From Ignavibacteriales bacterium (lineage in GTDB: Bacteria > Bacteroidota > Ignavibacteria > UBA10030), in contig JACPUH010000002.1 in NCBI GenBank assembly GCA_016192345.1, positions 8,875 through 72,874 of the forward strand: a stretch of 64,000 nucleotides of DNA, in the 5' to 3' direction. The notes under the pieces were generated by a model, which saw only the letters and a list, made by a program, of their open reading frames with translations, did no database searches and had not been told where the DNA came from. Positions within the stretch are counted from its first letter, which is position 1. Every line of letters begins with the position of its first letter. The position numbers were made by a program, and so were the translations under genes. Positions 4,498 to 42,392 of the stretch are shown here, piece by piece.

Positions 4498-4513
4498 GAC
4501 AACAAGCGTTCCA
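4498..4513 (-). promoter_or_regulatory. Candidate sigma54 -24/-12 promoter for the Cys-rich gene/maeB
   Basis: Minus strand TGGAAC-GCTTG-TTGTC with correct 5-nt spacing, about 45 nt before ATG 4454; two deviations from TGGCAC-N5-TTGC. Confidence 0.4.
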
Positions 4514-4722
4514 CTGCAAGCCTGCCAAACCCTTCGGGAAGCACAAACTTTCCAAGGGGGAGGCTTCCTTCTTTCTCATTCTTAGGAAGATGGGGGGGAG
4601 ATTTTTCAATTCGGGGAAGGTTTGATGCAAAGAGGTGAGGAACAACGGGAAAAAGGGGAAACACTAACGCGGAACGGAGCAGTGAAGAGTGGAAAGATCC
4701 TTCAAAATATCTTTTTTGATGT

Positions 4723-4959
4723 TCACGGGGACCAGTACCGCAAAAACAATCTGTGGGCATATTGCTTTAGGAAAGTCCGAAGAATCGAACTTTCACAAAC
4801 CCGATCGAATCCCTCACAAGCGTCTGCAAGGACCCCTTCGGCCTGCAGCCGTGTCGGGGCCGACTTGATCTGTTCCTCCAACCCTGCGCAATGCAGACCA
4901 ATGACCTCCTGTTGCCGGCCCGGCTGCATCAGCTCATTGGACGCCAGTTCATCCTGCAT
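4723..4959 (-). CDS. Small hypothetical protein (78 aa)
   Basis: ATG 9 nt after the OsmC-family stop, same strand, fills the gap; C-terminal SSILRTFLKQYAHR loosely resembles small three-helix domains. No firm family. Confidence 0.35.
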   Translation of the reverse strand: MQDELASNELMQPGRQQEVIGLHCAGLEEQIKSAPTRLQAEGVLADACEGFDRVCESSILRTFLKQYAHRLFLRYWSP

Positions 4960-4968
4960 GGCAATGGA

Positions 4969-5442
4969 TCATCCCCCGTGCACGCGAATCACCGGTTCCA
5001 CAACAACCCGGGACTTCACCGAGTTACCGATCAGGCAATTCTTGTGTGCGGCGTGGATGGTGTCCTCCGCTTGAAGAACGGCTTCGGGCGAGCCGACCTC
5101 GATCACCGGACGGATAACGACTTTGGTGAAACTGTACCCCCCGTCGGCGAATTCCAGGACTCCTTCCGCGTCGCTCGTATAAGAGACCAGCGGAATCTGG
5201 AGCCGGGTCGCCAACGCGATAAAGGTGGTCATCGTGCAGGCGTTGACCGCCGCGACGAACAGATCCTCCGGGCTCCAGACTCCTGCTTCGCCCTTGAACT
5301 CAGGAGGACTGGCAACCCGGAAGGACGGTTTCCCTTCCGAGGTGAGCGTTCCTGCGCGGTTTTCCAACCATGCAACATTGACCTGGTAGGTGTAGGTCTT
5401 GCGCTTGATACCGGTTGAAGGTGCTGCGACTGTTTGTTCCAT
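4969..5442 (-). CDS. OsmC/Ohr family peroxiredoxin-like protein
   Basis: VASPPEFKGEAGVWSPEDLFVAAVNAC ... AAHKNCLIGNS (two conserved Cys); start moved to ATG 5442 because the track start overlaps trxA. Confidence 0.9.
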   Translation of the reverse strand: MEQTVAAPSTGIKRKTYTYQVNVAWLENRAGTLTSEGKPSFRVASPPEFKGEAGVWSPEDLFVAAVNACTMTTFIALATRLQIPLVSYTSDAEGVLEFADGGYSFTKVVIRPVIEVGSPEAVLQAEDTIHAAHKNCLIGNSVKSRVVVEPVIRVHGG

Positions 5443-5473
5443 GAGATGCTTTTGTCGTGATGTGTGTGAATGA

Positions 5474-5818
5474 TCAGGCGACAACCTGCGCAGCAAGATG
5501 CTGATCCAGTTTTGCCTTGAGCATGGATTTGGGCGCCGCACCGACGATGCCGTCCACCAGTTGTCCTCCCTTGAAAATCCCGAGGGTAGGAATGCCGCGG
5601 ATCCCGTACGTTGCCGGTGCCTCGCTGTTTTCATCCGTATTCAGCTTGACAATTTTTACTTTTCCGGCATATTCGATCGCAAGCTCATCGACGATCGGAC
5701 CGACCATGCGGCATGGCCCGCACCATGGGGCCCAGAAATCGACCAGCACCGGGACGGAGGCCTTCAAGACTTCCTTCTCAAAGGTTCCATCGGTTGCATG
5801 AATAACGTTTTCGTTCAT
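5474..5818 (-). CDS. trxA: Thioredoxin
   Basis: [18 protein letters not shown] and GIRGIPTL; 114 aa. Confidence 0.97.
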
Positions 5819-5882
5819 TGTTTTCTCCTGAGTGAGGCGATCGTACGGTCTCTCTTCCGTGATCGCGTAAGAATTGGTTTTG

Positions 5883-6095
5883 TTATGAGACTTTGGGACT
5901 CTTCTTCGTTGAGACCTTGAGGGCCGTGTAGATGGGACAGAAGGAAAGGGAGCTTGTCAGCACAAAGACGAAGGCGGCGATTCCCAGCACCGTCGCAGCC
6001 AATCCCGTGATTTGGTCGGTGAAATACAGCGCGCCGATGAGAAGAGCGATAAGCACCCGCATCAGACGGTCGGTGGATCCTATATTGGTCGTCAT
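5883..6095 (-). CDS. DUF2892 (YgaP-like) small membrane protein
   Basis: [17 protein letters not shown]... two TM helices ...SFCPIYTAL motif; start moved to ATG 6095. Confidence 0.9.
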
Positions 6096-6182
6096 TGTTG
6101 ACCCTTTGTTGAACCGCGAATTGGAATATTGTTCGAACAGCTTGTGTAGGTAAGATGCGGGAGGATGCAGAAAGGGGTCACG

Positions 6183-6204
6183 AAAAAGGGGCCGAAAAAG
6201 CCCC
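6183..6204 (-). terminator. Weak Rho-independent terminator after the anti-sigma gene
   Basis: GGGGC/GCCCC stem (6188-6192/6200-6204) followed by 5 T on the minus strand. Confidence 0.4.
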
Positions 6205-6216
6205 GGACTCACACGA

Positions 6217-6456
6217 TTACTCGGAGGGCTTCGCCCGGGAGCTCTTGATGACCGCCAGCACATGAGAGAGAAGGGATTGCGGGACAATGAGGCTGGGTTG
6301 TGACTTGTAGAGCGAGACTGTTTTTTTCAGAGACTGCAGTGTTGTCGCGCAGTTCCCGCAACTGCTCAAATGCTCCTTGATGGAGCGACGGGACGGTTCA
6401 TCAAGATGCTCGTCCAGTTCTTCAATCAGAAAACGATACACTTCTGCACAGTCCAT
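6217..6456 (-). CDS. Zinc-binding anti-sigma factor (zf-HC2/ZAS), soluble
   Basis: N-terminal MDC plus HLSSCGNC (HxxxCxxC); 79 aa, no TM helix; starts 3 nt after the ECF sigma stop. Confidence 0.9.
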   Translation of the reverse strand: MDCAEVYRFLIEELDEHLDEPSRRSIKEHLSSCGNCATTLQSLKKTVSLYKSQPSLIVPQSLLSHVLAVIKSSRAKPSE

Positions 6457-6459
6457 GGT

Positions 6460-7068
6460 CTAGTCGGCAAGATAGTCGGTCAATTGTTCACGCAGGAATG
6501 CCCGCGCGCGCCGGAGCCGCGATTTGCTCGCTTCCTGTGAAATCCCGAGGATCGCGGCAGTCTCCTCATTGTTGTTTCCCTCCAGATCCCTCAGGATAAA
6601 AACCACGCGATACTCCATGGGGAGCCTGAGGATGGCCCTGTCCAGATGGTCCTGGAGCTCCTTGTTGATCAACGTCTGCATCGGACCGTGACCGGGATCG
6701 GCAACCTGGAGCGCCGGCTCGCCCCCCTCCTTCTCCCCTGGAAATTCATCATACGCCTGCATCTTCTCGTCGATCTTGCGGCGGCGGCGCTTCATCAGAC
6801 AACTGTTGGTCACGATGGAGTACAGCCACGTAGAGAACTTGGACCTTCCGTCAAACTGTGAGAGTTTCTGGTAGACGTTAATGAAGGTATCCTGGAAGGT
6901 CTCCTCCGCTTTGGAGCGGTCGCGGCAGACCTTGTGCGCAAAGTTCAGCACCAGTGACTGATGTTGCTTCATCAAGGCCGTAAAGGCACGCTCATCCCCC
7001 TCACGTGCCTGCCGAATCAACTCGCCTTCTGCCTGTTCCTGCCCCGCCGTCAAGACCTCAGCCATCAT
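6460..7068 (-). CDS. ECF RNA polymerase sigma factor
   Basis: Region 2 (AEETFQDTFI...FDGRSKFSTWLYSIVTNSC) and region 4 (LPMEYRVVFILRDLEG...ETAAILGIS...KSRLRRAR). Confidence 0.95.
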   Translation of the reverse strand: MMAEVLTAGQEQAEGELIRQAREGDERAFTALMKQHQSLVLNFAHKVCRDRSKAEETFQDTFINVYQKLSQFDGRSKFSTWLYSIVTNSCLMKRRRRKIDEKMQAYDEFPGEKEGGEPALQVADPGHGPMQTLINKELQDHLDRAILRLPMEYRVVFILRDLEGNNNEETAAILGISQEASKSRLRRARAFLREQLTDYLAD

Positions 7069-7077
7069 AACCCCTCT

Positions 7078-8064
7078 TCAATTAAGATGAATTTTAAACT
7101 CCATCTTCCGGATAAGTTCTCCCTCCGTCCCCTCGATCGCCTTGTAATGCTTCCGGTCATAGTAGAAGAACGACTCAATAAGGCCTTCCTCTTCCATGAT
7201 CCCCAGTGAGATAAGGACATCGAGATGCGACAATCCGAGAGCGCGCGCAAGTTCATCGAGCGTCATCGCCCGGCGGTGCAGCGCGGCAAGAATTTCGTCA
7301 TTATTGATCCTGTGCCGGGCCGTGACCGGTCTTGCGCCGCTCACCCCAATGACTTCACATGTTTCCCCGAACAACTCCCTGAGCCTGTACAGCTCCTTCT
7401 CCGCCACAGGTCCAAACACGGCATTGGACGGGGGCCGGATGATGGTGTTCAACTGGACCTTATCCGGCTGGATTTCCCCAACCACCCGCCTCAATCTCTC
7501 CACTTCGGATCGTTCATCGTTCAACCCTTTGACGAAGAGAATTTCCAGCCAGATCTGACCATGAAATTCCTTCCGGAACGTCTTCAGTCCTTCGATGATC
7601 GTTTCGATCTGAAGCGCGGGATGGGGACGATTCACCATCCCGAACACCCGGGTGGAAACCGCATCGAGCGATGGGAGGATAATATCGGCCTCCCTCAAAT
7701 CGTTCCGGACACTCTCCAGATACAACAAGGAGCCATTGGTGATGACCGCCACCGGTATCTGCGTGAGTTGCTTGACGGCATGGATGATCTCGCCAAGCTT
7801 TGAGTTCAGCGTCGGTTCACCCGCACCGGAAAATGTGATGGTATCGATCTGTTGTGGTTCCGCCAAGACCTCGGTCAATTCAGCGATAATCTTGTCCGCA
7901 GGGCAGTACTCCTGGCGGCGCATCGCCCGCTTATCGGTTGGTCCTACTTCACAATACACACAATCGAAATTACACAGTTTATGAGGAATGACATCGACCC
8001 CAAGGGACCTCCCGAGACGACGCGACGGGACCGGTCCGAAAATGTACCTCCGTCCATGGTTCAT
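7078..8064 (-). CDS. Radical SAM protein (YIFGPVPSRRLGRSLG family), function unknown
   Basis: CNFDCVYC triad, ITFSGAGEPTL, VAVITNGSLL; C-terminal HTH-like segment. Confidence 0.9.
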   Translation of the reverse strand: MNHGRRYIFGPVPSRRLGRSLGVDVIPHKLCNFDCVYCEVGPTDKRAMRRQEYCPADKIIAELTEVLAEPQQIDTITFSGAGEPTLNSKLGEIIHAVKQLTQIPVAVITNGSLLYLESVRNDLREADIILPSLDAVSTRVFGMVNRPHPALQIETIIEGLKTFRKEFHGQIWLEILFVKGLNDERSEVERLRRVVGEIQPDKVQLNTIIRPPSNAVFGPVAEKELYRLRELFGETCEVIGVSGARPVTARHRINNDEILAALHRRAMTLDELARALGLSHLDVLISLGIMEEEGLIESFFYYDRKHYKAIEGTEGELIRKMEFKIHLN

Positions 8065-8128
8065 ACAAGCCTCGATTTCTCATCAATCTCCCAAGCGGGA
8101 GTGTGGTCGCTTTGACAACGACACCGTA

Positions 8129-9460
8129 TCAGTGTGGCCGTTCGGCTTCTGCTGTGTGGAACTGTTTATAATTTGAAGATTCACGCAATGCTGCCTCCAG
8201 TTCCGGGCGGAACTCCGGATGGGCAATGGACAGCAAGGCCTCAGCACGCTGCACCAGGTTCCTTCCATGCAGGGAAGCAACCCCATACTCCGTGACGACA
8301 TAGTGAACGTCCGCCCTCGAAGTCACGACACCCGCTCCCGGCTTCAGCTGCGACACGATGCGCGAGACGGTGCCATCTCTTGTTGTGGAAGGGAGGGCGA
8401 TAATCGGCTTCCCTCCTTTGGAATAGGAGGCTCCGCGAATGAAATCCACCTGTCCGCCGAACCCGCTGTAGATCCGGCTTCCGATAGAGTCGGCACACAC
8501 CTGGCCGGTAATATCGACCTCGATGGCCGAATTGATTGCCACCATCTTTGCATTCTGGGCGATGATGAACGGATCATTGGTGTAATCACACGGGTGAAGC
8601 TCAAAGAGAGGGTTGTTATGGACATAGCGATACAATACTTCCGATCCGAGGACGAACGTGGCAATCACCTTGCCGGGATGAAGCGTTTTCCTCCGGTTCG
8701 TAATGATCCCTCGATCGATGGCCTTGACCACGCCATCGGAAACCATCTCCGTGTGGATACCCAGATCGTGCTTCCCTTCCAGGAGGGAAAGGACCGCGTC
8801 CGGGATACCGCCGATGCCGAGCTGCAGGGTTGAACCGTCTTCGATCAGGTCAGCGATGTGGGAGGCGATCCGCCGCTCAATCTCCGTCGAGCCCCCTTCC
8901 CTGAGGACCTCAAGCGGTTCGGAACATTCAACGATCTTATCGACACGGGAGCTATGGATGAACACATCTCCCAGCGTGCGCGGCATCCTCTCATTCACCT
9001 GCGCCACGACGATCTTGGCGCTTTCCGCCGCTGCCTTCGACGCGGCGCATTCAACGCCGAAACTCATGAACCCATGCTCGTCCGGTGGCGAGAGATGGAT
9101 GAACGCGACATCCAGAGGAATGATACGGTCGGTGAACAAGGACGGGATGTTGGAGAGATGCACCGGCACATAGGCCGACCTTCCATTGCTGATCGCCTTC
9201 CGATCCGCGGCCCCCACGAAGAGGGAGTTATGGCGGAAATGGCCATCCATCTCCGGACGGGAAAGGGGATCGTCCCCCATCAGCAAAACGTGGTTGACCT
9301 CAACATCGAACAGCTCATCCTTCCTGCGGACAAGCCCTTTCGTCAGCAAGGAAGGAGTGGCAGCGTTGCCGCTGATAAAGATCCGGTCCCCGGACTTCAC
9401 GACGGAAACCGCTTCATCCAGGGAAACAACTTTTGATTTATAGAGTTCGAGCCAGGTCAT
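8129..9460 (-). CDS. Acetyl-CoA hydrolase/transferase family protein (4-hydroxybutyrate CoA-transferase-like)
   Basis: LQLGIGGIPDAV, LGIHTEMVSDG, NSAIEVDITGQV, SGFGGQVDF, VVTEYGVA. Confidence 0.9.
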   Translation of the reverse strand: MTWLELYKSKVVSLDEAVSVVKSGDRIFISGNAATPSLLTKGLVRRKDELFDVEVNHVLLMGDDPLSRPEMDGHFRHNSLFVGAADRKAISNGRSAYVPVHLSNIPSLFTDRIIPLDVAFIHLSPPDEHGFMSFGVECAASKAAAESAKIVVAQVNERMPRTLGDVFIHSSRVDKIVECSEPLEVLREGGSTEIERRIASHIADLIEDGSTLQLGIGGIPDAVLSLLEGKHDLGIHTEMVSDGVVKAIDRGIITNRRKTLHPGKVIATFVLGSEVLYRYVHNNPLFELHPCDYTNDPFIIAQNAKMVAINSAIEVDITGQVCADSIGSRIYSGFGGQVDFIRGASYSKGGKPIIALPSTTRDGTVSRIVSQLKPGAGVVTSRADVHYVVTEYGVASLHGRNLVQRAEALLSIAHPEFRPELEAALRESSNYKQFHTAEAERPH

Positions 9461-9465
9461 GATGT

Positions 9466-10608
9466 TCAGTTCGAAGTGTGCTTGGCAAATCCTGAAACCA
9501 GATGCGACAATTGGGACGGCTTAAGATCAAAAACTTTCGCGACCGCTTCGTTCGTGCAATTGCCGTCGTAGGTGCATACACCTTTACCAAGGCCCTGGTC
9601 GTTCCGGAGCGCGTTCACGAGCCCTCCTTCCGTGATCTCCAGGAGATACGGGAGCAACGCGTTCGTCAGCGCGGCGGTCGCCGTCCGTGCGACGGATGCG
9701 GTCATATTGGGGACACAATAGTGGATCACGCCGTGACGGACAAATACCGGATCGGCGATCAACGTGGGCCTGCTTGTTTCAACGCACCCTCCCTGGTCGA
9801 TGGAGGCATCGACGATAACCGAACCGACCTTCATATCCCGCACCATGGTTTCGGTCACAACATGAGGAGCCTTTTCTCCCTTTAAGAGAACCGCCCCAAC
9901 CACCAGATCTGCAAACCGGACAGCCTTGGCGATATTGGGTTTTGTGGCCATCGCCGTGGTAATGCGCCACTGGAACAGATGCTCAAGCTCGCGCAACCTG
10001 GAGACTTCCTTGTCCAGCACGGTAACGTTTGCCCCCATACCCAACGCCACGCGGGCCGACGTCCTACCAACGGTCCCGGCACCAAGGATCACAACGGACG
10101 CAGGAGGAACCCCCGGCACGCTGCCAAGGAGAATCCCGCGGCCGCCATCCCGTCCTTGCAAATGATGCGCACCGACCTGGACAGCAAGCTGACCGGCGAT
10201 TTCGCTCATCACCTGCAGCACCGAAAGAACGCCGGCGGCGTTCTCAATCAACTCATAACTGATCCCCGTGACTCTCCGGTTCAACAGGATCTCGATGAGC
10301 CGACGCTGGGAAACGGCAAGATGCAGGAACGAAAGCAAGACCTGTCCCTGGCTGAACATGCTCAACTCAAAATCGGTGGGCGGCGAGACCTTCAAAACTA
10401 TTTGTGACCGCGTGATGACTTCCTCCGCACTGTAACTGATCAGGGCCCCGGCATCCCTGTATTCTTCATCCTGGAAGAGCGCGGACGAGCCGGCCTGTTT
10501 TTCGATATACACTGTATTGCCCGCCCCTATGAGCGTTTGCACGCCGACGGGAGAGAGGGCAACCCGTCGCTCGTTCACGCCGTCTTCCTTGAGAATTCCG
10601 ATGTCCAT
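9466..10608 (-). CDS. ald: Alanine dehydrogenase family (AlaDH/PNT) protein, divergent
   Basis: ERRVALSP, FLHLA, MSEIAGQLAV, ILGAGTVG, SIDQGGCVETS, HYCVPNM; but the usual KVKEP is KVSPP (see findings). Confidence 0.75.
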   Translation of the reverse strand: MDIGILKEDGVNERRVALSPVGVQTLIGAGNTVYIEKQAGSSALFQDEEYRDAGALISYSAEEVITRSQIVLKVSPPTDFELSMFSQGQVLLSFLHLAVSQRRLIEILLNRRVTGISYELIENAAGVLSVLQVMSEIAGQLAVQVGAHHLQGRDGGRGILLGSVPGVPPASVVILGAGTVGRTSARVALGMGANVTVLDKEVSRLRELEHLFQWRITTAMATKPNIAKAVRFADLVVGAVLLKGEKAPHVVTETMVRDMKVGSVIVDASIDQGGCVETSRPTLIADPVFVRHGVIHYCVPNMTASVARTATAALTNALLPYLLEITEGGLVNALRNDQGLGKGVCTYDGNCTNEAVAKVFDLKPSQLSHLVSGFAKHTSN

Positions 10609-10657
10609 ACGATTCCTTCAGTCGTGGTCTTGGTTGATGGAAAGTGTACCGGAAGGG

Positions 10658-10672
10658 TCAAAAAGCGTGCCG
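10658..10672 (-). promoter_or_regulatory. Weak candidate sigma54 element upstream of ald
   Basis: Minus strand CGGCAC-GCTTT-TTGA; -24 half good, -12 is GA rather than GC; 50 nt before the ATG. Confidence 0.25.
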
Positions 10673-10775
10673 TTTGGAGTGGCAAAACCTACACGGATAG
10701 AAACGAATTTGCAGGAGCCCGGCTCCGGGGATTCGCAGAACTGAGAAATCTTCGGGGGAGGTTCTCAAAGGGCGG

Positions 10776-10807
10776 AAAGAAAAGAGCCGCAGAGAAAGCC
10801 CTGCGGC
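10776..10807 (-). terminator. Rho-independent terminator after ccmF
   Basis: GCCGCAG/CTGCGGC stem (10786-10792/10801-10807) followed by TCTTTTCTTT on the minus strand. Confidence 0.6.
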
Positions 10808-13230: not shown

Positions 13231-13246
13231 AGCAATCTTTATGCCA
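13231..13246 (-). promoter_or_regulatory. Sigma54 -24/-12 promoter of ccmF
   Basis: Minus strand TGGCAT-AAAGA-TTGCT, consensus spacing, about 46 nt before ATG 13186. Confidence 0.75.
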
Positions 13247-13420
13247 TTATCGTATGGGCATCCCTGGATATTCAGTCAGGAATCGCTGATTTCGGAATCA
13301 CGTAAAGTGGTTGTGCAGAAGCTTTTGGTTCTTTTTTTTCAGAAGTAGGAAATCTTATCAGTTTGTCTCACATGTCGGAACGTGCTTCAAGTCGTATTGC
13401 CAATCCGACTCAAAAGGGGC

Positions 13421-14668: not shown

Positions 14669-14698
14669 ATTGTTTCCTCCTGAGCAATACCGTTCAGA

Positions 14699-15583: not shown

Positions 15584-15612
15584 GATCGATCTTCCAGAAC
15601 AGAAGTGACATG

Positions 15613-16851: not shown

Positions 16852-16858
16852 AAGGGGC

Positions 16859-18315: not shown

Positions 18316-18343
18316 AGAATAGGGGAATATGGTCCGGTCCGAT

Positions 18344-18889: not shown

Positions 18890-18954
18890 GAGTATCTCCC
18901 TCTGGTGATTGATGAGTTACGTGTTCGAGCGTATCATTTCTACAAGAACACTTC

Positions 18955-28702: not shown

Positions 28703-28709
28703 AATGCTC

Positions 28710-30203: not shown

Positions 30204-30309
30204 AGGCTCCTTTTGGCATATTCTTCCTTAAAAACCTACCAACAAAATTACTCAGAGTCCAACTCTATCTTGACGAATACTTGTTCAGTTCGGGGGGGAA
30301 CAGCGGAGA

Positions 30310-31554: not shown

Positions 31555-31575
31555 GATGTTCTCCTGTCGTGTAGA

Positions 31576-33669: not shown

Positions 33670-33686
33670 AGCAATTCGCGTACCAG
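33670..33686 (-). promoter_or_regulatory. Sigma54 -24/-12 promoter upstream of tkt
   Basis: Minus strand CTGGTAC-GCGAA-TTGCT, about 62 nt before ATG 33609. Confidence 0.7.
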
Positions 33687-33816
33687 AAAATGTTCCGTGA
33701 GAAGGAAAAATGGATTGGTAGAGATACACCCACGGCGTAAAATTCCCAGGAATGGGAAGAAAAGCCTCCTATTTCTGCAAATGGGACCAGCGAAAAGAAT
33801 GAGGAGTTTCGAAGTT

Positions 33817-34659
33817 CTAGCGGTATGCAAACACCATGGCGTAGATGATCATGACGATCAACAGGAAGCCGAGGGAGAGTGCAGTCCACGCAAACACCTT
33901 CACGGTTCGAAGGACGATGGGGGGATAAGGATCCGCCATCATATTCTCAAGCTCACCTGATTTCTTGAGCGCCTCATATTCTCTGGGGCGCTCTTCCATG
34001 AACTCCTCCAGCGGGACGCGTCCCGTGAAGATCACGAGATCCATGGGAAACTTTTCCGGACGGAGATGGGTATTGAAAAAATGGACTGTGAAGATAAACC
34101 CCACAGCAAGCAAGGCTTCGTCACTGTGGATAATTGTGGCAACGTTGATGAACCAGCCCGGCATGAACTGAGTGAAGAACTCGGGGAACCAGAGCATGAG
34201 ACCGGTCGATCCGATAATAAACACTCCCCAGAAGACAGCGAAGTAGTCAAACTTTTCCCAATACGTCCAGCGTCCGTATTCCGGTCGAGGTCCGAGATTG
34301 AGAAACCATTTGATGGAGGCGACGAACTCCCGCAGGTCCTGTTTCGTCGGAAGCATCGTGTCGGGTCCCAGGAGCAGTCCCCGCAATGATCCTGCCTCCT
34401 TTCGCTTGCGTATGAGCACGTTGTAGAGGTGTGCAAAAAAGATTCCGAACATAAAGACCGCAGCAATCCGGTGGATATAACCGGCGGATTCATATCCTCC
34501 CAACATTCTTGAAAGGACATTCGCCCAGCCGGTGTAGGAGAATTTCAGGGTCATGCCAGTGAGAGCAAGACTGATAAAACTCACGATCATGACAATATGA
34601 AGCACTCGCTCGAGACGGGAGAACCGCACAACCTGGTGTTCCGATTCCGGACTATGCAT
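33817..34659 (-). CDS. Diheme cytochrome b (FdnI-like fold), CbcL-type membrane domain encoded separately
   Basis: [65 protein letters not shown] match my recollection of the CbcL C-terminal domain. Confidence 0.85.
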
Positions 34660-36646
34660 TGTCGTTCTTCGACTCCTGATTCTTTTTCTCCAACCTTCTC
34701 CGGCGCTCCCGCCTCATTTGCAGGGCTCGCGGGAGCCAGAGGAGAGTGTGGGCGCCGCCGAGAACAAAAGTTCCAATGAGCAGGCCGGTCATTCCCCAGA
34801 ATGTCCAGAAGAGGAACGGATACTTGTCGGGATCGTGATGGGTTGCGTGTGTGAGGTATCCTGCAAAACGGCGCGTGGCACCTGGATGGCATTTTTGACA
34901 CGTTCCGACAACGTTGTCGTGACTCAAATGCGATTGGGGATCGGCAACGGGACGAATGTCGTGAGCTCCGTGACAATCGTAACATTTTGCCGTTTGGGTG
35001 TAGCCGAGCTGCGAGACTTTTCCGTGATAGGTGTCGAAGTACGTGGTGGCAATCTTCTCATGACACTGTCCGCATTTTGTCATGATGTCGAGCTTAAATC
35101 CTGCAATGTCTGTCCGGCGGATGGTGTGTGCAGAATGACAATCGTTGCAGACGGGGAGTTTCTTGTCCGTCTTATGCTTCAAGGTGCTATGGATGCTTTG
35201 CACGAACTGTTCCTGGATCCCGTGATGGCATCGACCACATGTGACTGGTACGTTCTCGGGATTCACGCTTGACGCCGGGTCGGAGATCGGGCGGACATTG
35301 TGCGCAGGATGGCAGTCGCTGCACGTCGCAGTCACGGTGAGACCGCTTTTCAGCAATCCTTTCCCATGGATGCTCTCCGTATAATGGTTGACGATCTCGT
35401 GTTCCGAGCCCGTGTACCGCATGGCTGCTTTCTTCCCTTCCTGGTGGCACTTGCCGCACAGCCGGGGGATGTTCAGGGCAAAGATCGGGGAGCTCGAATC
35501 CGTCCGTCCTTTCACTTCGTGCGTACCGTGGCATTCCTTGCAGGTTGGCCCATTCGGGTCATTGTTGGCGATAAGTTTGCCGTGCATGCTGCCCTGATAT
35601 TGCTGCCCTACTTCCGCGTGACATGACGAACAATCAACTTTCTGCGCAATGGTCTCACACGGACGATGCCTGGACGCGTTGACACCTGCATGGCATTGAC
35701 TGCAGGAGATTTTCTGATGTTTCGAATGAGCCAGCGTATCCGATTGAACCGCCAGGGACCTGCCATCGGCGGAGGACCGAATGGAGAGGTTCGCGTGACA
35801 GCGCATGCAGTCCTGGTCCGCCATTCCCTGATCGTAGAAAACCTTGCGCGCTTTGTGGGGCTGATGACAATCCACACATGCCGGGAGAACGTGTTCTTCT
35901 TTTTCCCACAATGCACCCTTGATGACTTTACGATGAACGTCCTCAATTTGCGCGTGACACACCGTACACGTCGCGGCGATATTTCCCCGCGCGATCGAGG
36001 ATCGGGGATCGGTATGGGGGAGAATGAAGTGCGGTGTATGGCATGAGGCGCAATTGGCCGAGACAACGAGGCCCCGTCTCATGAGACCCTCGGCATGGAT
36101 GCTTTCAGAGTAATTCTCGAGAATATGCGACTGAAGAATGACCCGCTCTCGTTGCACGCGAGTTCCTTCCTGATGGCAGCGTCCACACATAAAGGGAATG
36201 CGGAGGGGCGAAACAGCCGACTCGGCGCTTTTGGTGCGGGCAATCGCGTGGCTGCCGTGACACGATTGGCAATTCGGCGCCAGCGCATCGCCACGGGCAA
36301 CCGCTTTGCCATGGAGACTTTCCTTGTGGAGTTCCTCTTCGGAGGTATGGCACGTGCCGCATACCACCGGCACCACAGGGACCCCATGCGGCATTTCTTT
36401 CCCTTCAAGATCCACGTGGCACGTGACGCACGAAAGATCTGCGTGCACCGACTTCAAAAAGATTGCCTGATCGACAAAAAGCGATACGGGTTTCCCTCGT
36501 CTCTCCGTGGTCAGACTTTTGTCTTCGTGGCACGTGAAGCAGTCGCTGTTATCCTGGCCAAGGGCCACCCCGCCAAGGAGGATAGTCAGGAACAAAGCCA
36601 TGATGGTCCGCCGTCGGATCGCCGGCAGCACGGGAATCGTTTTCAT
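34652..36646 (-). CDS. 19-heme cytochrome c with C-terminal TM helix (expanded CbcL-type heme domain)
   Basis: Signal peptide, 19 CxxCH counted, internal duplication, C-terminal HATHHDPDKYPFLFWTF...GAHTLLW; stop overlaps the cytochrome b start by 8 nt (ATGCATAG). Confidence 0.9.
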   Translation of the reverse strand: MKTIPVLPAIRRRTIMALFLTILLGGVALGQDNSDCFTCHEDKSLTTERRGKPVSLFVDQAIFLKSVHADLSCVTCHVDLEGKEMPHGVPVVPVVCGTCHTSEEELHKESLHGKAVARGDALAPNCQSCHGSHAIARTKSAESAVSPLRIPFMCGRCHQEGTRVQRERVILQSHILENYSESIHAEGLMRRGLVVSANCASCHTPHFILPHTDPRSSIARGNIAATCTVCHAQIEDVHRKVIKGALWEKEEHVLPACVDCHQPHKARKVFYDQGMADQDCMRCHANLSIRSSADGRSLAVQSDTLAHSKHQKISCSQCHAGVNASRHRPCETIAQKVDCSSCHAEVGQQYQGSMHGKLIANNDPNGPTCKECHGTHEVKGRTDSSSPIFALNIPRLCGKCHQEGKKAAMRYTGSEHEIVNHYTESIHGKGLLKSGLTVTATCSDCHPAHNVRPISDPASSVNPENVPVTCGRCHHGIQEQFVQSIHSTLKHKTDKKLPVCNDCHSAHTIRRTDIAGFKLDIMTKCGQCHEKIATTYFDTYHGKVSQLGYTQTAKCYDCHGAHDIRPVADPQSHLSHDNVVGTCQKCHPGATRRFAGYLTHATHHDPDKYPFLFWTFWGMTGLLIGTFVLGGAHTLLWLPRALQMRRERRRRLEKKNQESKNDNA

Positions 36647-38862
36647 GGTGATTGATCGTCTTTACGTCCGGACAAAGCTCTCATCTCTTCCTGTGCCTGT
36701 TCGCTGAGCACCCTTTCCAGTTCCAGCGGATGCTCTTCCTGCATCTCAGCTTCGCTCAGTGTTCCTGTCCAGAAAGCAAGATTGATGGGGTAGGTATCCG
36801 GATTGAACATGACGTAATAGAAGTGCCACACAATGATTGCCAGCGTGGCGAGCCAGGCTTCATAAAAATGGATCAAACGGGCAACGTCGTATCCGAGCTT
36901 GGTCAGAAGCCCGATGAAGGTGTTGTCGAACCACATGATGAATCCCGTGACCCCCATGACAATCGTTCCCCACACGAGCGCCCAGTACTCGCTCTTTTCG
37001 ATATAGCTGAATCGACCGAACCTCGGCTTTTCATTCGTGATCCACAGGTTGTATCGAAGGACATCGCGCGCGTCCACGAGATCCTGGAACCTTGGCATGA
37101 GATCGCGAATCAGTTCTTTTCCCCGGGGAATGAACAAGATATAATACGTATGGTAGAGGGCTGCAAGAACCATGACGACGGCTGCCACCCTATGGACAAG
37201 ACCCCGAAGGTCGAAGGCTGCGTCGCTGAGATTCCGGATCGAGACTACCCACCATGCATCAGGATAGCGTAGCATGAACCCCGTGATCACCAGAGTTACA
37301 AAGCTCACAACGAGTGACCCGTGCTGAAGGCGTTCGCTCAGGCTCATGCGCAGGTACAAATGATGTCCCACATGTTCTTCGTGGATCACGCCACGCCGAA
37401 CCAGCAGTTTCCTGCGCGCCTTCCTGATGAAATCCAGCGCATTGTGGAACACCATGCCGCCGATGGTCGACAGGATCAGCATGAGGTAGAGCGTTGCTAC
37501 CCAATACAGCAAGGGGTCGTTTTCACTGTTCGTAATATCCACATGCACGGACCCGATTGCGAATCGTTCATTGGCCCCCCTGTGACATTTCCCGCATGTT
37601 TCCGCAAGATTGTTTTTGTTCGTCGGGGAGGCAGGATCCGCGGACGGCTTGATGCTGTGAACACCGTGACAGCTTGTGCAATTGGCCACTTCGATCGATC
37701 CACCGCGGATCGCCAGGCCGTGATAACTGTCCGTAAATGTCGCGAAACGGTCCGATGCAATGCCGTACTTCTGAGTCAGCTTCACGGAACTATGGCAGGG
37801 AGAACAGACCTGCGCGCTCACATTCTTTGCGGCAATCGGTGACGCCGGGTCGGTATGAGCGAGAATGTTGTGCTCGCCATGACAATTGGTGCAAACGGGC
37901 GATTCCAAGTTTCCCAAACCCGATGCGATGCCATGGACGCTTTCATTGAATTCTTTCGTGATTTCCGCGTGGCACTTTGCGCATGTGCCGGGAATATTGA
38001 ACTTATAGACTTTCGATTCAGGGTCATTGCCCTTACGCATTTGGTGGCTGCCGTGGCAATCGACGCAGTTCGCTGCCTGGGCATTGCCCGATTGCAGTGC
38101 CGATCCGTGAACGCTGTGTTCATACGCGGCGATAAACCCGGCGGAGGGGGCAACGCGGGCCCGCACACTCTCATCGTCGAGATGGCACGAGAGGCAGAAT
38201 TTCTCCTGGGCGGTTTTCACCTGGACCGAATCCCTCCCGGGCCGAATCTTGGTAAGGTCATTCCGATGACATGTAATGCAGATGGGAGCACCCAGGATGC
38301 CCGCTTGGAGGGCTTGGCCATGTGCGGACTCGAGAAAAGTCTTTCGTTCCGTGAGGTGGCACGTACCGCAGAAATCCGGCTGCTTTGCACGAGATGTGCG
38401 TGCCGCGGGACTCCCTGGCGAAACCACATCATGAGTCCCATGGCAACTTTTGCAGGAGACGTCGGGGGTGCCGTCGTGCCCTGTTGCTCTCGCCATCTGA
38501 GGATGGAACGCGTGCTTGGAAGGAGCGTCGCGATGACACGTCTTACAGTTGACCGGCGTGATCGTTTCCTTGTGGGGAACATTTTCGGCGTCGAATCCAA
38601 CGTGGCAGGCCACGCAAACGAGTTTGCCGTGGGGAGATTTTCTGAGGACGGCTTCGTCGGCGTGAAGAGAGACTTCCCTCCCATTCCGTTCCATGGTGAG
38701 TGAAGGCTCACTGTGGCATGCGAGGCAATCCGCCCTTGTCTGTGCAAAGAGGGAACCACCCGGGGCAGAAAGGACGACCAGGAAAAGGTACGACAGAACA
38801 GATCCCCGTCGCTGATGAGACCTGGAGAGAATTCGTTTGAGAAGTATGAACGCTACAAACAC
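36643..38862 (-). CDS. 13-heme cytochrome c fused to a cytochrome b domain (Cbc-family quinol:cytochrome c module)
   Basis: 13 CxxCH followed by ERLQHGSL, LVHRVAA, RFSYIEKSEYWALVWG, IHFYEAWLATLAIIVWHFY; start uncertain (GTG 38862 with AAAGG preferred over TTG 38922); ATGA overlap with the next gene. Confidence 0.88.
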   Translation of the reverse strand: MFVAFILLKRILSRSHQRRGSVLSYLFLVVLSAPGGSLFAQTRADCLACHSEPSLTMERNGREVSLHADEAVLRKSPHGKLVCVACHVGFDAENVPHKETITPVNCKTCHRDAPSKHAFHPQMARATGHDGTPDVSCKSCHGTHDVVSPGSPAARTSRAKQPDFCGTCHLTERKTFLESAHGQALQAGILGAPICITCHRNDLTKIRPGRDSVQVKTAQEKFCLSCHLDDESVRARVAPSAGFIAAYEHSVHGSALQSGNAQAANCVDCHGSHQMRKGNDPESKVYKFNIPGTCAKCHAEITKEFNESVHGIASGLGNLESPVCTNCHGEHNILAHTDPASPIAAKNVSAQVCSPCHSSVKLTQKYGIASDRFATFTDSYHGLAIRGGSIEVANCTSCHGVHSIKPSADPASPTNKNNLAETCGKCHRGANERFAIGSVHVDITNSENDPLLYWVATLYLMLILSTIGGMVFHNALDFIRKARRKLLVRRGVIHEEHVGHHLYLRMSLSERLQHGSLVVSFVTLVITGFMLRYPDAWWVVSIRNLSDAAFDLRGLVHRVAAVVMVLAALYHTYYILFIPRGKELIRDLMPRFQDLVDARDVLRYNLWITNEKPRFGRFSYIEKSEYWALVWGTIVMGVTGFIMWFDNTFIGLLTKLGYDVARLIHFYEAWLATLAIIVWHFYYVMFNPDTYPINLAFWTGTLSEAEMQEEHPLELERVLSEQAQEEMRALSGRKDDQSP

Positions 38863-39009
38863 GGGGCAAACCTTTTCGTGAGAGTCGCTGTGAAGGTCAG
38901 CGACATCGACAGTGATATTCAAGTACGACCGACCTTCTCATCCCGGAGATATTGGTTGATCTTTGCACACCATACATCGTCCAAGGCCAACAGCGGGCTT
39001 GTTAAAACA

Positions 39010-39064
39010 ACCAAGCAGCTCCAACACATCGGGTCGCCTCGGTAGTGTCGAGGAGCTGCTTGGT
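39010..39064. other. Long stem-loop in the leader of the cbc-type operon
   Basis: Perfect 13-bp ACCAAGCAGCTCC/GGAGCTGCTTGGT plus inner ACAC/GTGT pairing; no U-tract. Confidence 0.55.
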
Positions 39065-39202
39065 AACAATCGTGCATCGTTGAAGCATCCAAAGGCTCGA
39101 CGATCGGGTTATTTTGAATGCATCGATTCCCGCCACTGCGTCAGGGTCTCAAGCTCCTCCACTGAACCCTCGAGGAACCCGGTTCTCCACGGTGTTCTGG
39201 AA

Positions 39203-39304
39203 CTACATCCCCACCGCGCCTGCGGTCGAAAACGCGATCAGCGTAAGGACTAACACCGTCAGGGCCAAGACGCACCCAGACAACCACATTCGTCGTTCGT
39301 TCAT
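39203..39304 (-). CDS. Putative 33-aa single-TM small protein (below ORF-track cutoff)
   Basis: MNERRMWLSGCVLALTVLVLTLIAFSTAGAVGM*; GAGG RBS about 7 nt upstream; directly after a sigma54-type element. Confidence 0.4.
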   Translation of the reverse strand: MNERRMWLSGCVLALTVLVLTLIAFSTAGAVGM

Positions 39305-39365
39305 CGAAAACCTCGTTCCATCGTTTGTCCACCGGGGTATTGAATACCTCAACACTTTACCCTGT

Positions 39366-39381
39366 GACAACCTCCGTGCCA
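39366..39381 (-). promoter_or_regulatory. Candidate sigma54 promoter for the sORF and cbc-type operon
   Basis: Minus strand TGGCAC-GGAGG-TTGTC, about 63 nt before ATG 39304. Confidence 0.6.
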
Positions 39382-39471
39382 CGACGCGTGTTGGCTTTAC
39401 AGGGAAATAAATGCTGAGGAATTCAACAAGGGGTTCCCAAAGCCGGGAAATCTCGTGTCACCTTCCAACGG

Positions 39472-40431
39472 CTAAGAATGTGGCCCCAAGGATGCATCAT
39501 GATGCACCTCCGGGCCTTTGAGGAGGGATGTGCCAAATGGTTTGACGGTGAATACGGGAACTCGGGAAAATCTTACAATCTTCTCTGCTACGCTCCCCAG
39601 AAGCAAATGCTCGATGCCCGTTAAACCGTGGGTGGCGATCACAATCAGGTCCGAAGCATGGCTCTCGGCAAACTTGACGATATCCCGGGCCGCGCGCCCT
39701 TCACGAATATGGATCTCGGCCTGCACCTCCGGCCCCCCCGACTCCATCAGCATCCGCTCAATTTCCCGGACGGAAGTGGTCTCGATCTCCGGCATGAACT
39801 CAAAAACCGAGCTGCGCCCCGTGGCATACAAGGCGGGATGCAATTGTTCCTCGACGATATGCAGGACTTGAAGTTCGGCCCCGTACAATATCGCGAGTTC
39901 CTTTGCATACCGCACCGCCTGCTCCGAGTGTTTCGAAAAATCGACCGGGACAAGGATCTTGCGAAACACACCGGCCCTGTGGGGTTCCATCGTCTCCCGA
40001 ATCGTAAAGACGGGGCATGAGGCAAATCGCACGATTTCCTCCGCAACGCTCCCCAGGAACAAGTGTCCTATTCCTCTTCGACCATGGGTTCCCATGACAA
40101 TCAGCTCGACCTCATGCTCGCGGGCATAGTCGATGATCACCGGTCCGATGGAGATATCCCGAACGACGTTCTGCGTGATGCGAAGCGTTTGCGCCTGCTG
40201 CTGTTCCAAAACCTGCAGCATCGGTGGTGTCAGGACGGTTGCTCCAGGCCTGACCTCCGGTGCAGCGGGGACCACCGTCAACAGGCTGGTGTGGTCCTCG
40301 TACGGAACGTACACGCGAAGAACATGCAATTCCGCACTGTGCCGCTTTGCTAATTGTACCGCCTGGACGAATGCCTGGTTAGCACAGCGGGAAAAATCTG
40401 TCGGAAAAAGAATTCTCTGGATCGTGATCAT
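39472..40431 (-). CDS. Tandem-domain universal stress protein
   Basis: ILFPTDFS...IVMGTHGRRG...LGSVAEEIVR..CPV, then ILVPVDFS...IATHG...LGSVAEKIVR; start at ATG 40431. Confidence 0.95.
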   Translation of the reverse strand: MITIQRILFPTDFSRCANQAFVQAVQLAKRHSAELHVLRVYVPYEDHTSLLTVVPAAPEVRPGATVLTPPMLQVLEQQQAQTLRITQNVVRDISIGPVIIDYAREHEVELIVMGTHGRRGIGHLFLGSVAEEIVRFASCPVFTIRETMEPHRAGVFRKILVPVDFSKHSEQAVRYAKELAILYGAELQVLHIVEEQLHPALYATGRSSVFEFMPEIETTSVREIERMLMESGGPEVQAEIHIREGRAARDIVKFAESHASDLIVIATHGLTGIEHLLLGSVAEKIVRFSRVPVFTVKPFGTSLLKGPEVHHDASLGPHS

Positions 40432-40471
40432 GGCTTCTGCTCCTTTCCTGAACAAATCGCCCGACGATGCG

Positions 40472-41191
40472 TCAGGACGATGTTGCGAGGCTGAAGCGAA
40501 CCGGAATCGATACCCGCACCTTAACCGCCTTGCCCCGCTGTTTGCCCGGATGAAACTTCGATTCCATCACCGCGCGCATTGCAGCTTCGTCACACCCGCC
40601 GCCAATCCCCTTCTGCACTTCGGTCTTCACAACATTCCCCAACTCGTTGACGAACGCAAGAACAAACACACGCCCCTGAATTCCCGCCCGAATGGCCATC
40701 TCGGGATACACCACACGCTTTTGCAGTCCTTCGATCCCTCCAACAAGTTCCGGGAGGTCCTCCACCGCAATGAAGTACTCCTCGTCGCCCCCGGTTTCAT
40801 GGCTTGCCGGCGGGGGAGGTGCCACATCCTGCCGGATGTCGATCTCGGAACTTGCAATCGAAATATCCTCCAGCGCTTCATCGGAGGGGGCCTCGATCGG
40901 TATCAACGGCTTGGGGGGCGGCGGTGGGCGGTTCTCCTGCTTCGTCCGCTCGATCTCCTCAAACTTCACCATTTCCTGGGAATGGATGAGGATCTTTTTT
41001 GCCCCCAGGGTTGCCGGGAAAAATTTCATCATGACCGTGACAAGCACAAGGGCGATAATGAGGGAGATCTCAAATACGACCCTTGATGAAAATCCAAGAC
41101 GGATCGTCTCGCTGTGCACCACCTTGGGGGATATCCCTTCGGGGCGCCTCATCCTGTTTAAAAAACCTTCTCGAATTCGCTCCAGTAACAT
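40472..41191 (-). CDS. Energy transducer TonB family protein
   Basis: One TM helix, Pro-rich RPPPPPKP segment, C-terminal YPEMAIRAGIQGRVFV...GGGCDEAA...F.PGKQRGKAVKV..SIPVRF. Confidence 0.9.
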   Translation of the reverse strand: MLLERIREGFLNRMRRPEGISPKVVHSETIRLGFSSRVVFEISLIIALVLVTVMMKFFPATLGAKKILIHSQEMVKFEEIERTKQENRPPPPPKPLIPIEAPSDEALEDISIASSEIDIRQDVAPPPPASHETGGDEEYFIAVEDLPELVGGIEGLQKRVVYPEMAIRAGIQGRVFVLAFVNELGNVVKTEVQKGIGGGCDEAAMRAVMESKFHPGKQRGKAVKVRVSIPVRFSLATSS

Positions 41192-41282
41192 TGTCGTTCG
41201 CGCTCCTTACTTTTTCGTCGAGAGCCTGCTCTGACTGCTATGGTCTGCCGAACTCACAAGTGACGCTATCTGCACCATGATG

Positions 41283-41299
41283 CGCAAACAATGTGCCTA
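41283..41299 (-). promoter_or_regulatory. Sigma54 -24/-12 promoter upstream of tonB-usp
   Basis: Minus strand TAGGCAC-ATTGT-TTGCG, about 93 nt before ATG 41191. Confidence 0.6.
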
Positions 41300-41423
41300 A
41301 GGAGAGCGGGTAAAATCAAGGGAATTGCTCGTTTTAAAGGAGAGAATGCTCTAAAAAGTGGGAATCAAAAAGAGGACTTCTCAGGAGTGGGAATTGCAGA
41401 ACAACAGGAAAACGGGGGAAAGC

Positions 41424-41768
41424 TTATGACGTTTGCCGTTTTCGGCTCCGTGCATGGGCTTCATCAATTGCTTCCAGAATAAGTGGGAGGTGATCGTCCA
41501 GGGCAAACATTAACTCCCCTTCTAAAACGGCGGAGGGAGATGGTATTTCTTTTGCCTGACCGCAAATCTCCAGATGAAGCGCTGCGATATAATCCTCAGG
41601 CATTCCGGTTTTGACGCTCTTCACAGCTTTGACAATCCCTGGCATGTGCCGGTTCAGCGCGCAGTCATCCGATTTTCCCATGCCGCAGATGCCCATGCCG
41701 GTTCGTTCGATACATTGTATGCATACCCTGGTTCGTATGACCTCTTCGAATTCATCCATGGTGTGCAT
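41424..41768 (-). CDS. Small Cys-containing hypothetical protein
   Basis: ATG 41768 with AAGGAGG RBS; RVCIQCIER...IC...DC...IC (5 Cys); follows the hemerythrin gene. Confidence 0.7.
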   Translation of the reverse strand: MHTMDEFEEVIRTRVCIQCIERTGMGICGMGKSDDCALNRHMPGIVKAVKSVKTGMPEDYIAALHLEICGQAKEIPSPSAVLEGELMFALDDHLPLILEAIDEAHARSRKRQTS

Positions 41769-41814
41769 AGGGCCCTCCTTCTGTTCCTGTTGGTCAACAA
41801 CCATCACGCTGTAC

Positions 41815-42306
41815 TTACAACGATCCATGACCCATGTTGGTCGCAACCAGGGTCAGTTCCTCGACCGAAAGAAGCCTTTTCGCAAGAGGAAACAGCAGTT
41901 CATTTTCCCGCGTAATGTGGCTGCGCATGATGGCCACAATATGCAGGGAGATCTGGACAATCTCGTGGATGGAGGATCCTCTCATGCGCCCCCGCTCAAT
42001 TTCCTGAACGATCTCCATGAATTGTGAAAACGCGCCCCGCAATTCATGATGGTCGTTGCGCATCGACTCCGGCAACTCCGAGCCGTGCCGTTCGATCACC
42101 GGGAACAAATACCTCTCCTCTCTCAAAATGTGCTCGCGGACATCGTTATTCATCCAGCGCACCGCTTCAATGATCTCTTCAATCGCCTCAGCAGAAAACC
42201 CGTTGGCTTGAATCGATTCAGCGGCCTGTTCCAACCGCGCAAGATGCTGTAACCCCTCCTGATGCTCTTCGAGCAAAATTTTCAGGGGGTCGTTTGAAAA
42301 CTCCAT
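41815..42306 (-). CDS. Hemerythrin (HHE) domain protein
   Basis: LLEEH, HILREE.YLFP, DHHELR, HITRENELLFP di-iron ligand pattern; start at 42306 (alternatives 42312, 42348). Confidence 0.9.
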   Translation of the reverse strand: MEFSNDPLKILLEEHQEGLQHLARLEQAAESIQANGFSAEAIEEIIEAVRWMNNDVREHILREERYLFPVIERHGSELPESMRNDHHELRGAFSQFMEIVQEIERGRMRGSSIHEIVQISLHIVAIMRSHITRENELLFPLAKRLLSVEELTLVATNMGHGSL

Positions 42307-42376
42307 ATCCATTCCTTGACGAAAAACCATTCGCTCACTCGATTTCATACAATCGCATCCCTTCCCCCTTTCCCCT

Positions 42377-42392
42377 CACAAGGATTATGCCA
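42377..42392 (-). promoter_or_regulatory. Candidate sigma54 promoter of the hemerythrin operon
   Basis: Minus strand TGGCAT-AATCC-TTGTG, after the nrfA terminator and upstream of the hemerythrin start. Confidence 0.55.

Follow-up and report, generated by a model that had tools for sequence, protein, structure and literature searches.

Our analysis of a 64,000-nucleotide stretch from an Ignavibacteriales bacterium (GenBank assembly GCA_016192345.1, contig JACPUH010000002.1, positions 8,875 to 72,874 of the forward strand; hereafter the window) supports a model whereby nine transcription units, spread over ~41 kb of one strand, very probably each start at a sigma-54 (RpoN) promoter that is served by the same upstream enhancer and by one activator. 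The best reading of this island is a classical two-component sigma-54 regulon of about 38 genes, in which a single activator acts through one operator on nine promoters; from the arrangement of the sites here and in related loci, we infer sigma-54 dependence in vivo, binding by the activator, the presence of the regulator in the genome, and the signal to which it responds. A first-pass annotation of this DNA had listed nine GG-N10-TTG(C/T/A) elements and had proposed that heme maturation, the porin-cytochrome conduit, and inner-membrane modules are jointly induced via sigma-54. All nine elements are present on the minus strand where it had placed them, and joint switching is supported by sites that lie far above chance, are strand-specific and conserved, and share a common activator motif in nine of nine cases. 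The annotation had further invoked several distant activators; the occurrence of one upstream motif at all nine promoters backs co-regulation and points to a single activator instead. Besides the respiratory modules, the regulon also takes in central-carbon genes, namely those for a malic enzyme-phosphotransacetylase fusion, alanine dehydrogenase, an acetyl-CoA transferase, a transketolase-like protein, and an aminotransferase.

The promoter elements were evaluated with a 17-nt matrix derived from 90 predicted RpoN promoters of Geobacter sulfurreducens (PMC2725144, Additional file 3). Eight matches of at least 10 bits were found in the 3,850 non-coding positions of the gene strand (2.08 per kb) and a single one on the opposite strand of the same non-coding DNA (0.26 per kb), while coding DNA (58,918 positions) gave 10 and 9 matches on its two strands (0.17 and 0.15 per kb). 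The density in gene-strand non-coding DNA is thus 8-13 times that of any control. Dinucleotide-preserving shuffles of the non-coding segments yielded a mean of 0.36 matches and a maximum of 3, with none of 2,000 shuffles reaching 8, so that the comparison with shuffled and opposite-strand DNA suggested in the first-pass annotation came out in favor of the elements (8 matches against a mean of 0.36 and against 1). The three highest scores of the whole window (13231, 25506, and 33670) are all intergenic and face the next gene. In all nine sites the spacing from the GG to the G of the TTG is exactly 10 nt, and the distance from the -12 to the start codon ranges from 30 to 93 nt.

The enhancer emerged from the region upstream of the transketolase-like gene (tkt), in which an upstream block conserved among relatives is the palindrome TTCCCA-N4-TGGGAA. 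Because this pattern was drawn from the tkt alignment only, the other eight promoters provide an independent test, and a pair of such palindromes stands upstream of nine of nine promoters. With up to three mismatches allowed, the window contains 47 matches, of which 17 are non-coding; each of these 17 precedes one of the nine promoters. The two members of a pair are spaced 29-32 nt apart (23 nt at tkt), with 60-104 nt from the GG to the proximal centre and 89-136 nt to the distal centre. Strict pairs (28-33 nt spacing) number seven distinct cases (eight as reported by the count, in which the porin pair registers twice) against an expectation of 0.13 when the window is shuffled and 0.005 when non-coding DNA is shuffled. 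Distances between enhancer and promoter of 60, 67, 69, 80, 99, and 104 nt give no clear period that would indicate phasing. A search for pairs covering 2.4 Mb of related loci (designated by L numbers) extended the association: in syntenic Ignavibacteria-type loci, every palindrome pair has a -24/-12 site downstream in one orientation only, the exceptions being two marginal opposite-strand matches in L084 and L151, and the four pairs with no site at all are on unrelated loci that matched tkt or ccmF.

The elements recur at orthologous positions in related genomes, where site positions are kept at 50-80% protein identity; the first-pass annotation had called for a look at such regions, and the outcome is positive, though only partly so for the cytochrome-fusion promoter. 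Before tkt, the element lies 41-63 nt from the ATG in nine of ten Ignavibacteria relatives and is found in none of ~60 more distant tkt homologues, which mostly carry Acidobacteriota/Terriglobia labels. In the alignment of ten orthologous tkt regions, the GG, the TTG, and the TT..CA..GA of the distal palindrome are invariant and the remainder has diverged. The porin promoter and its palindromes are kept in nine relatives, including L001, L002, L005, and L009, and the orthologue in L032 of the two-transmembrane (2-TM) gene that heads the Qrc-like operon has a promoter (GTGGCACGATTCTTGAC) and a palindrome at equal distance. Ten metagenome orthologues of ccmF (50-60% protein identity) have sites of 13-19 bits located 32-59 nt from the ATG, seven of them together with palindrome pairs. 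The module before the alanine dehydrogenase gene (ald) is kept in 13 relatives, about 11 of which share CGGCACG-N-TTTTTGAC and a palindrome pair, while L095 and L151 have a TTGC promoter instead; the site at 10657/10658, previously described as a weak TTGA case, is therefore among the most conserved of all. In relatives, the equivalent of the tonB module stands before a small open reading frame (ORF) that is followed by tonB and usp, and L098 has a TGGAAC-type site and a palindrome pair before a small ORF that is followed by malic enzyme. Orthologues of the cytochrome fusion have a site and a palindrome in L002, L005, and L010, and no site above threshold in L001, L004, L007, and L009.

Five of the nine window sites read TTGT or TTGA and do not have the canonical GC at -12. 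To describe this position on its own terms, promoters were anchored by their enhancer pairs and the -12 C column was ignored, giving 47 distinct promoters from the window and its relatives. In these, the GG is present in 46-47 of 47 and the TTG likewise in 46-47 of 47, while the next base is A in 20, C in 19, T in 8, and G in none. Porin promoters read TTGT or TTGA in all genomes, and the ald promoter is TTGA in about 11 of 13. Conservation of the variant within each promoter family indicates tolerance rather than decay. The earlier suggestion of a tolerated -12 variant therefore holds, with TTGT/TTGA kept at the porin promoter (9 relatives) and the ald promoter (13 relatives), and extends to TTGA. 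On this pattern of conservation, the variant is clearly maintained, and promoters of the regulon would appear to depend on the GG and the TTG and to be able to do without the canonical C at -12. Having a base other than C in over half of the promoters, they form a natural -12 series that is useful for studying promoter silence and strength.

Which protein might bind the enhancer is indicated by the relatives. Within the window, Pfam scans and a search for the GAFTGA motif were both negative for an enhancer-binding ATPase, as the first-pass annotation had stated. In L005, by contrast with the window, an activator gene (2483-3856) encodes Response_reg, Sigma54_activat (2e-71), and HTH_8 domains with a GSFTGA loop and is accompanied by a kinase gene (1055-2482); the pair is likewise found in L163-L168. 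In L005, L009, L163-L165, and L167, the kinase (PAS-PAS-HisKA-HATPase) and the activator directly precede the tonB-usp-cytochrome-tkt cluster and are co-directional with it. The kinase-activator operon is itself preceded by palindromes (a strict pair except in L167) and a 15-18 bit promoter, which is the pattern expected of a cognate autoregulated activator, and the gene directly after the operon is likewise preceded by palindromes and a promoter. Conservation within the activator family is tight (70-97% identity across more than 100 clusters), and its closest solved relative is NtrC1 of Aquifex (PDB 4l4u, E = 3e-108). The best full-length matches to the second PAS domain of the kinase are MmoS PAS-A (3ewk) and NifL PAS1 (2gj3), and the domain lacks the LOV cysteine, N-x-I-L-N-S-G replacing the LOV N-C-R-F-L-Q. 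As this domain is of the flavin adenine dinucleotide (FAD)-binding NifL/MmoS type, the input may be the cellular redox state; judged from its sequence, the domain suggests a kinase that senses redox via a flavin. No protein with an RpoN box was found in the 2.4 Mb of relatives' loci.

The place occupied by the pair in relatives, directly upstream of tonB (compared in L005 1-5000 and L163 8000-12200), is held in the window (41400-46400) by the hemerythrin and 134-amino acid protein genes, nrfHA, the Rrf2 gene, and the nar-alternative complex III operon. With this place filled otherwise, the regulator seems to have been split from its targets by rearrangement or insertion. A search of metagenomes with the L005 activator as reference showed that the three metagenomes containing the window also hold a collinear activator orthologue at ~80% nucleotide identity. 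In these three samples, in which several related populations coexist, depths are 7.3, 36, and 21.3 for the activator contigs and 6-9, 34-36, and 23-29 for the window; these values are consistent with, and no proof of, an origin of activator contig and window in one population. An activator contig from a sibling sample, L169, was considered as the contig present in the samples of the window and was rejected, as only 16 of 31 variant positions match. Exact-protein look-ups for NarG and NarH gave no match.

We propose the following mechanism for the regulon. The kinase would take cellular redox state as its input through the FAD-type PAS domain, and the phosphorylated NtrC-type regulator (receiver, AAA+ domain with GSFTGA loop, and Fis-type helix-turn-helix (HTH)) would bind the palindromes as dimers and oligomerise. 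The activator would then spend ATP to open the closed complex of the sigma-54 holoenzyme at the nine promoters. Quinol-oxidising cytochrome complexes, the porin-cytochrome conduit, the CcmF-like heme lyase, TonB/Usp, hemerythrin, and the pyruvate/acetyl-CoA enzymes would rise together. The candidate regulator is the orthologue of the relatives' PAS kinase-activator pair, which may be subject to positive autoregulation through its own module. Aquifers, sediments, and soils commonly harbor uncultured Ignavibacteria, for which, to our knowledge, no regulator of multiheme-cytochrome respiration has been described. The defined operator, the nine promoters, and the candidate kinase-activator pair therefore offer a handle on multiheme-cytochrome respiration in uncultured members of the group. 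We tentatively speculate, at somewhat less than even chance, that a single flavin-PAS kinase and sigma-54 activator is the master switch of anaerobic/extracellular electron transport in widespread uncultured Ignavibacteria, co-inducing quinol oxidoreductases, conduit, heme maturation, and the pyruvate/acetyl-CoA node via relaxed TTG(A/C/T) promoters. If this is true, the relaxed -12 may tune the basal silence and the output of each unit.

Several observations weigh against the model of one activator acting at nine sigma-54 promoters. The matrix comes from computationally predicted rather than mapped promoters of Geobacter. Orthologous promoters are not independent of each other, and the tally of 47 overweights the ald and porin families. 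The site at 4498 scores only 7.7 bits, and the palindromes at 42487 and 42519 are weak (4 and 3 mismatches, respectively). The cytochrome-fusion promoter is kept in only three of seven relatives, and its -12 is separated from the fusion gene in the window by 505 nt. Neither the window nor the 8 kb past its start, reached by look-up of the malic enzyme protein, encodes an activator. The depth match between window and activator contigs is circumstantial, and the sibling sample with its different orthologue, L169, shows that several related populations coexist. Finally, none of the RNA runs searched for the window sequence contains it, which bears on the mapping of start sites.

Three other explanations were weighed against this model. 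In one, the promoters are sigma-54 promoters, but the palindromes are bound by some other protein, such as a different enhancer-binding protein, a repressor, or a dimer of the CRP/FNR type. A 6-N4-6 palindrome geometry is also used by CRP/FNR-family proteins, so that the geometry of the palindrome fits them too, and no activator is encoded in the window itself. The kinase-activator operon of the relatives and the gene after it nevertheless carry palindromes and a promoter, the usual signature of an autoregulated activator, and tandem sites placed 60-135 nt before the -24/-12 match enhancer geometry and not class I/II activation or repression; we therefore regard binding by another protein as unlikely. 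A second explanation, whereby each promoter answers to a separate distant activator with sigma-54 as the sole common factor and no single switch, takes its appeal from sigma-54 regulons elsewhere, which are usually divided among many activators. In G. sulfurreducens, there are 110 predicted RpoN promoters (PMC2725144). The degenerate palindromes at P1 and P9, the modules at 42377 and 4498, would also favor separate activators. Set against this are one motif and one geometry at nine promoters and nowhere else in the non-coding DNA of the window, as well as the same motif beside the orthologous promoters of relatives, and separate activators appear quite improbable.

There remains the idea that the matches reflect chance or a dispersed intergenic repeat devoid of promoter function. 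Short degenerate motifs are common, and matches of 10-15 bits also occur within genes (19243 and 14954). Against this stand the shuffles, none of which reached the observed count, the strong strand and non-coding bias, and the conservation of positions across genomes. An all-against-all comparison of the nine intergenic regions found similarity limited to these motifs; the regions are therefore not copies of a dispersed repeat, and the repeat-element idea was rejected on the basis of this comparison. We give this last explanation hardly any weight and return to the model of a single activator and a shared enhancer.

The mechanism proposed in this model is already known; what stands out is how many promoters a single island contains, that respiratory and carbon genes form its joint cargo, and that the -12 is relaxed. 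Like NtrB/NtrC (the glnAp2 paradigm; NtrC1 of Aquifex aeolicus, PDB 4l4u/1ny5; ZraSR), the candidate regulator is composed of receiver, AAA+, and Fis-HTH domains and has a histidine kinase as its partner. As in NtrC-type systems, tandem palindromes lie ~60-135 nt upstream of the -24/-12 and the regulator operon would be autoregulated. Unlike in those systems, the operator reads TTCCCA-N4-TGGGAA, the cargo serves respiration and central carbon metabolism instead of nitrogen or zinc stress, a single contiguous island contains the nine promoters, the -12 C appears dispensable, and the regulator would here lie away from its targets. In G. sulfurreducens, the RpoN regulon and BccR-cbcBA provide a precedent for control of b/c-type cytochrome quinol oxidoreductases by sigma-54 and a response regulator (PMC2725144; bioRxiv 10.1101/2021.04.15.440034). 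As in the Geobacter RpoN/BccR case, electron-transfer and central metabolism genes are in the regulon, and Geobacter is a metal- and nitrate-respiring anaerobe; it belongs to the Desulfuromonadota, whereas the window comes from the phylum Ignavibacteria (FCB group). BccR is divergent from a single cytochrome bc operon, while the pair of the relatives is co-directional with the cluster and upstream of it, and unlike with BccR, a single enhancer motif is common to nine units, among them an outer-membrane conduit and a heme lyase. In the kinase of the relatives, the second PAS domain resembles those of NifL and MmoS (PDB 2gj3 and 3ewk), and flavin binding and redox sensing are predicted by this similarity in sequence; NifL is an anti-activator, whereas the protein that carries this domain in relatives is a classical histidine kinase. 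In the literature on sigma-54 in Ignavibacteria or Melioribacter, we found no description of such a regulon.

According to the ORF list, the minus strand carries nearly all genes of the window. By Pfam, the order from high to low coordinates starts with narGHJI and alternative complex III, moaA, an Rrf2 regulator, and nrfHA, and continues with hemerythrin, a TonB-Usp pair, and two multiheme/cytochrome b modules. There follow the transketolase-like gene, an aminotransferase, and a module of NapC-type, Rieske, cytochrome b, and multiheme proteins, then a Qrc-like complex, the porin with three multiheme cytochromes, and a CcmF-like protein. The last block comprises alanine dehydrogenase, acetyl-CoA transferase, an ECF sigma factor, and the malic enzyme-phosphotransacetylase fusion. 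The transketolase-like protein is 94% identical to a protein from a metagenome-assembled genome labeled "Bacteroidota", the syntenic relatives are labeled Ignavibacteriales or Ignavibacteria, and a near-complete window is present only in groundwater DNA metagenomes. The cytochrome content of the window resembles that of Geobacter, but its related loci mark the organism as Ignavibacteria-type and a Geobacter relative was rejected. The shared enhancer ties hemerythrin, two Cys-rich small proteins, the transketolase-like enzyme, and the CcmF-like protein to the electron-transport modules, which aids the assignment of their functions.

The nine modules and their units, all on the minus strand, are described here from high to low coordinates, with gene assignments by Pfam. 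Module P1 (42377-42534) consists of the element at 42377-42393 (ATGGCATAATCCTTGTG, 10.2 bits) and palindromes at 42487-42502 and 42519-42534, which are 32 nt apart and form the weakest enhancer among the nine; it lies downstream of the nrfA terminator (42569-42589). Its Unit 1 (41424-42348) has two overlapping ORFs, for a hemerythrin-domain protein (41815-42348; Pfam Hemerythrin) and a Cys-rich 134-amino acid protein (41424-41828), and the L008 homologue of the latter gene is preceded by a similar promoter (ATGGCATAACGATTGCC) and a palindrome pair. Module P2 (41283-41393), with its element at 41283-41299 (TAGGCACATTGTTTGCG, 12.2 bits) and palindromes at 41349-41364 and 41378-41393 (3 and 1 mismatches, 29 nt apart), precedes Unit 2 (39472-41191), which encodes a TonB-C protein (40472-41191) and a tandem-Usp protein (39472-40431). 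In module P3 (39366-39478), the element at 39366-39382 (GTGGCACGGAGGTTGTC, 11.0 bits) is accompanied by palindromes at 39434-39449 and 39463-39478 (1 and 3 mismatches, 29 nt apart). Unit 3 (33817-39304) starts with a 33-amino acid single-TM leader ORF (39203-39304), 63 nt from the -12, and continues with a multiheme/cytochrome b fusion (36643-38862), a multiheme cytochrome (34652-36646), and a cytochrome b (33817-34659). The stretch between element and fusion gene (38863-39365) is unusually long, the same interval being only 140-190 nt in relatives; an Rfam scan of the window, including this 500-nt leader after P3, found no known RNA family.

Module P4 (33670-33781) combines the element at 33670-33686 (CTGGTACGCGAATTGCT, 16.2 bits) with two palindromes, a perfect one at 33743-33758 (TTCCCATTCCTGGGAA) and another at 33766-33781, spaced 23-25 nt, and precedes Unit 4 (25696-33609), which encodes the transketolase-like protein, the aminotransferase, a NapC/NirT-type multiheme protein, a Rieske protein, a cytochrome b, and a multiheme cytochrome. 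Module P5 (25506-25658) has its element at 25506-25522 (TTGGCACGCTTCTTGCG, 17.0 bits) and palindromes at 25612-25627 and 25643-25658 (1 and 3 mismatches, 31 nt apart). Unit 5 (18344-25469) comprises a 2-TM protein, a class I cytochrome c repeat protein, a multiheme cytochrome, a molybdopterin-fold subunit, a 4Fe-4S subunit, an NrfD-type subunit, and a c554-like cytochrome. The Qrc-like operon (18955-25469) with its own module is absent in L001, L002, L005, and L009, in which the c554-like gene directly follows the 11-heme gene, and is present in L032; it thus acts as a variable cassette put into a conserved gene order. Module P6 (18193-18327), with the element at 18193-18209 (TCGGCACGGCAGTTGTA, 12.9 bits) and palindromes at 18280-18295 and 18311-18327 (31-32 nt apart), serves Unit 6 (13475-18151), composed of the porin-like protein and three multiheme cytochromes. 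Module P7 (13231-13380) has its element at 13231-13247 (ATGGCATAAAGATTGCT, 17.6 bits) and palindromes at 13336-13351 and 13365-13380 (29 nt apart) and precedes Unit 7 (10859-13186), which encodes the CcmF-like cytochrome c maturation protein (Pfam Cytochrom_C_asm and CcmF_C).

The two remaining modules share one palindrome geometry, with centres 68.5 and 98.5 nt from the GG and 30 nt apart. Module P8 (10657-10777) consists of the element at 10657-10673 (ACGGCACGCTTTTTGAC, 10.2 bits) and palindromes at 10732-10747 and 10762-10777, and precedes Unit 8 (4723-10608) with alanine dehydrogenase and an acetyl-CoA hydrolase/transferase. The Unit 8 transcript possibly extends into a radical-SAM gene, the ECF sigma factor, a small ORF, a YgaP-like gene, and an OsmC-like gene. 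The ECF sigma factor and the small downstream ORF, a possible anti-sigma factor, lie at 6217-7068 in the gene string of the ald unit; if this pair is co-transcribed from P8, the sigma-54 regulon would drive a second sigma-factor cascade. Module P9 (4498-4618) has its element at 4498-4514 (GTGGAACGCTTGTTGTC), which reaches 11.6 bits when the -12 C column is ignored, and palindromes at 4573-4588 and 4603-4618. It precedes Unit 9 (1156-4454), which encodes a Cys-rich 116-amino acid protein (4104-4454) and the malic enzyme-phosphotransacetylase fusion (1761-4079) and of which a YbaK-like editing protein (1156-1683) is possibly part; this gene neighbourhood is repeated in L081 and L163. The two small Cys-rich proteins of the regulon (4104-4454 and 41424-41828) are cytoplasmic and have no Pfam match, and in relatives their homologues accompany PFOR/malic enzyme and the kinase-activator operon.

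A few further matches to the matrix lie apart from the nine modules. Inside genes, strong sense-strand matches occur at 19243-19259 in the NrfD-type gene (14.8 bits) and at 14954-14970 in a heptaheme gene (13.4 bits), and L002 (15901) and L009 (15906) have matches of 14-17 bits at equal offset inside a cytochrome b gene. Intragenic sigma-54 sites have been described for E. coli, and those seen here are either true sites of this kind or a coincidence of coding. A -24/-12-like element of 10.3 bits at 46426-46442 (TAGGCACGGGTTGTGCG), ~90 nt upstream of the Rrf2 gene (45869-46336), has no palindromes and may be a chance match.

The full module of palindromes and promoter was not found at nrfHA, the Rrf2 gene, or the nar-alternative complex III operon, which places the nitrate and nitrite genes outside the regulon. 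Before nrfH, which has neither a -24/-12 element nor palindromes, the sigma70-like promoter reported in the first-pass annotation was not reproduced by a consensus scan, and a TAnnTTTG motif is present instead. TAnnTTTG is the -7 element of Bacteroidota-type primary promoters. In the non-coding DNA of the window it occurs in three places only: at 44856 before nrfH, at 30250 before the NapC-type multiheme gene, and at 33670 just after the -12 of P4. These sites hint at putative promoters of the housekeeping type, and given the 106-nt gap at 30204-30309 that contains the motif, the last four genes of Unit 4 may have a promoter of their own.

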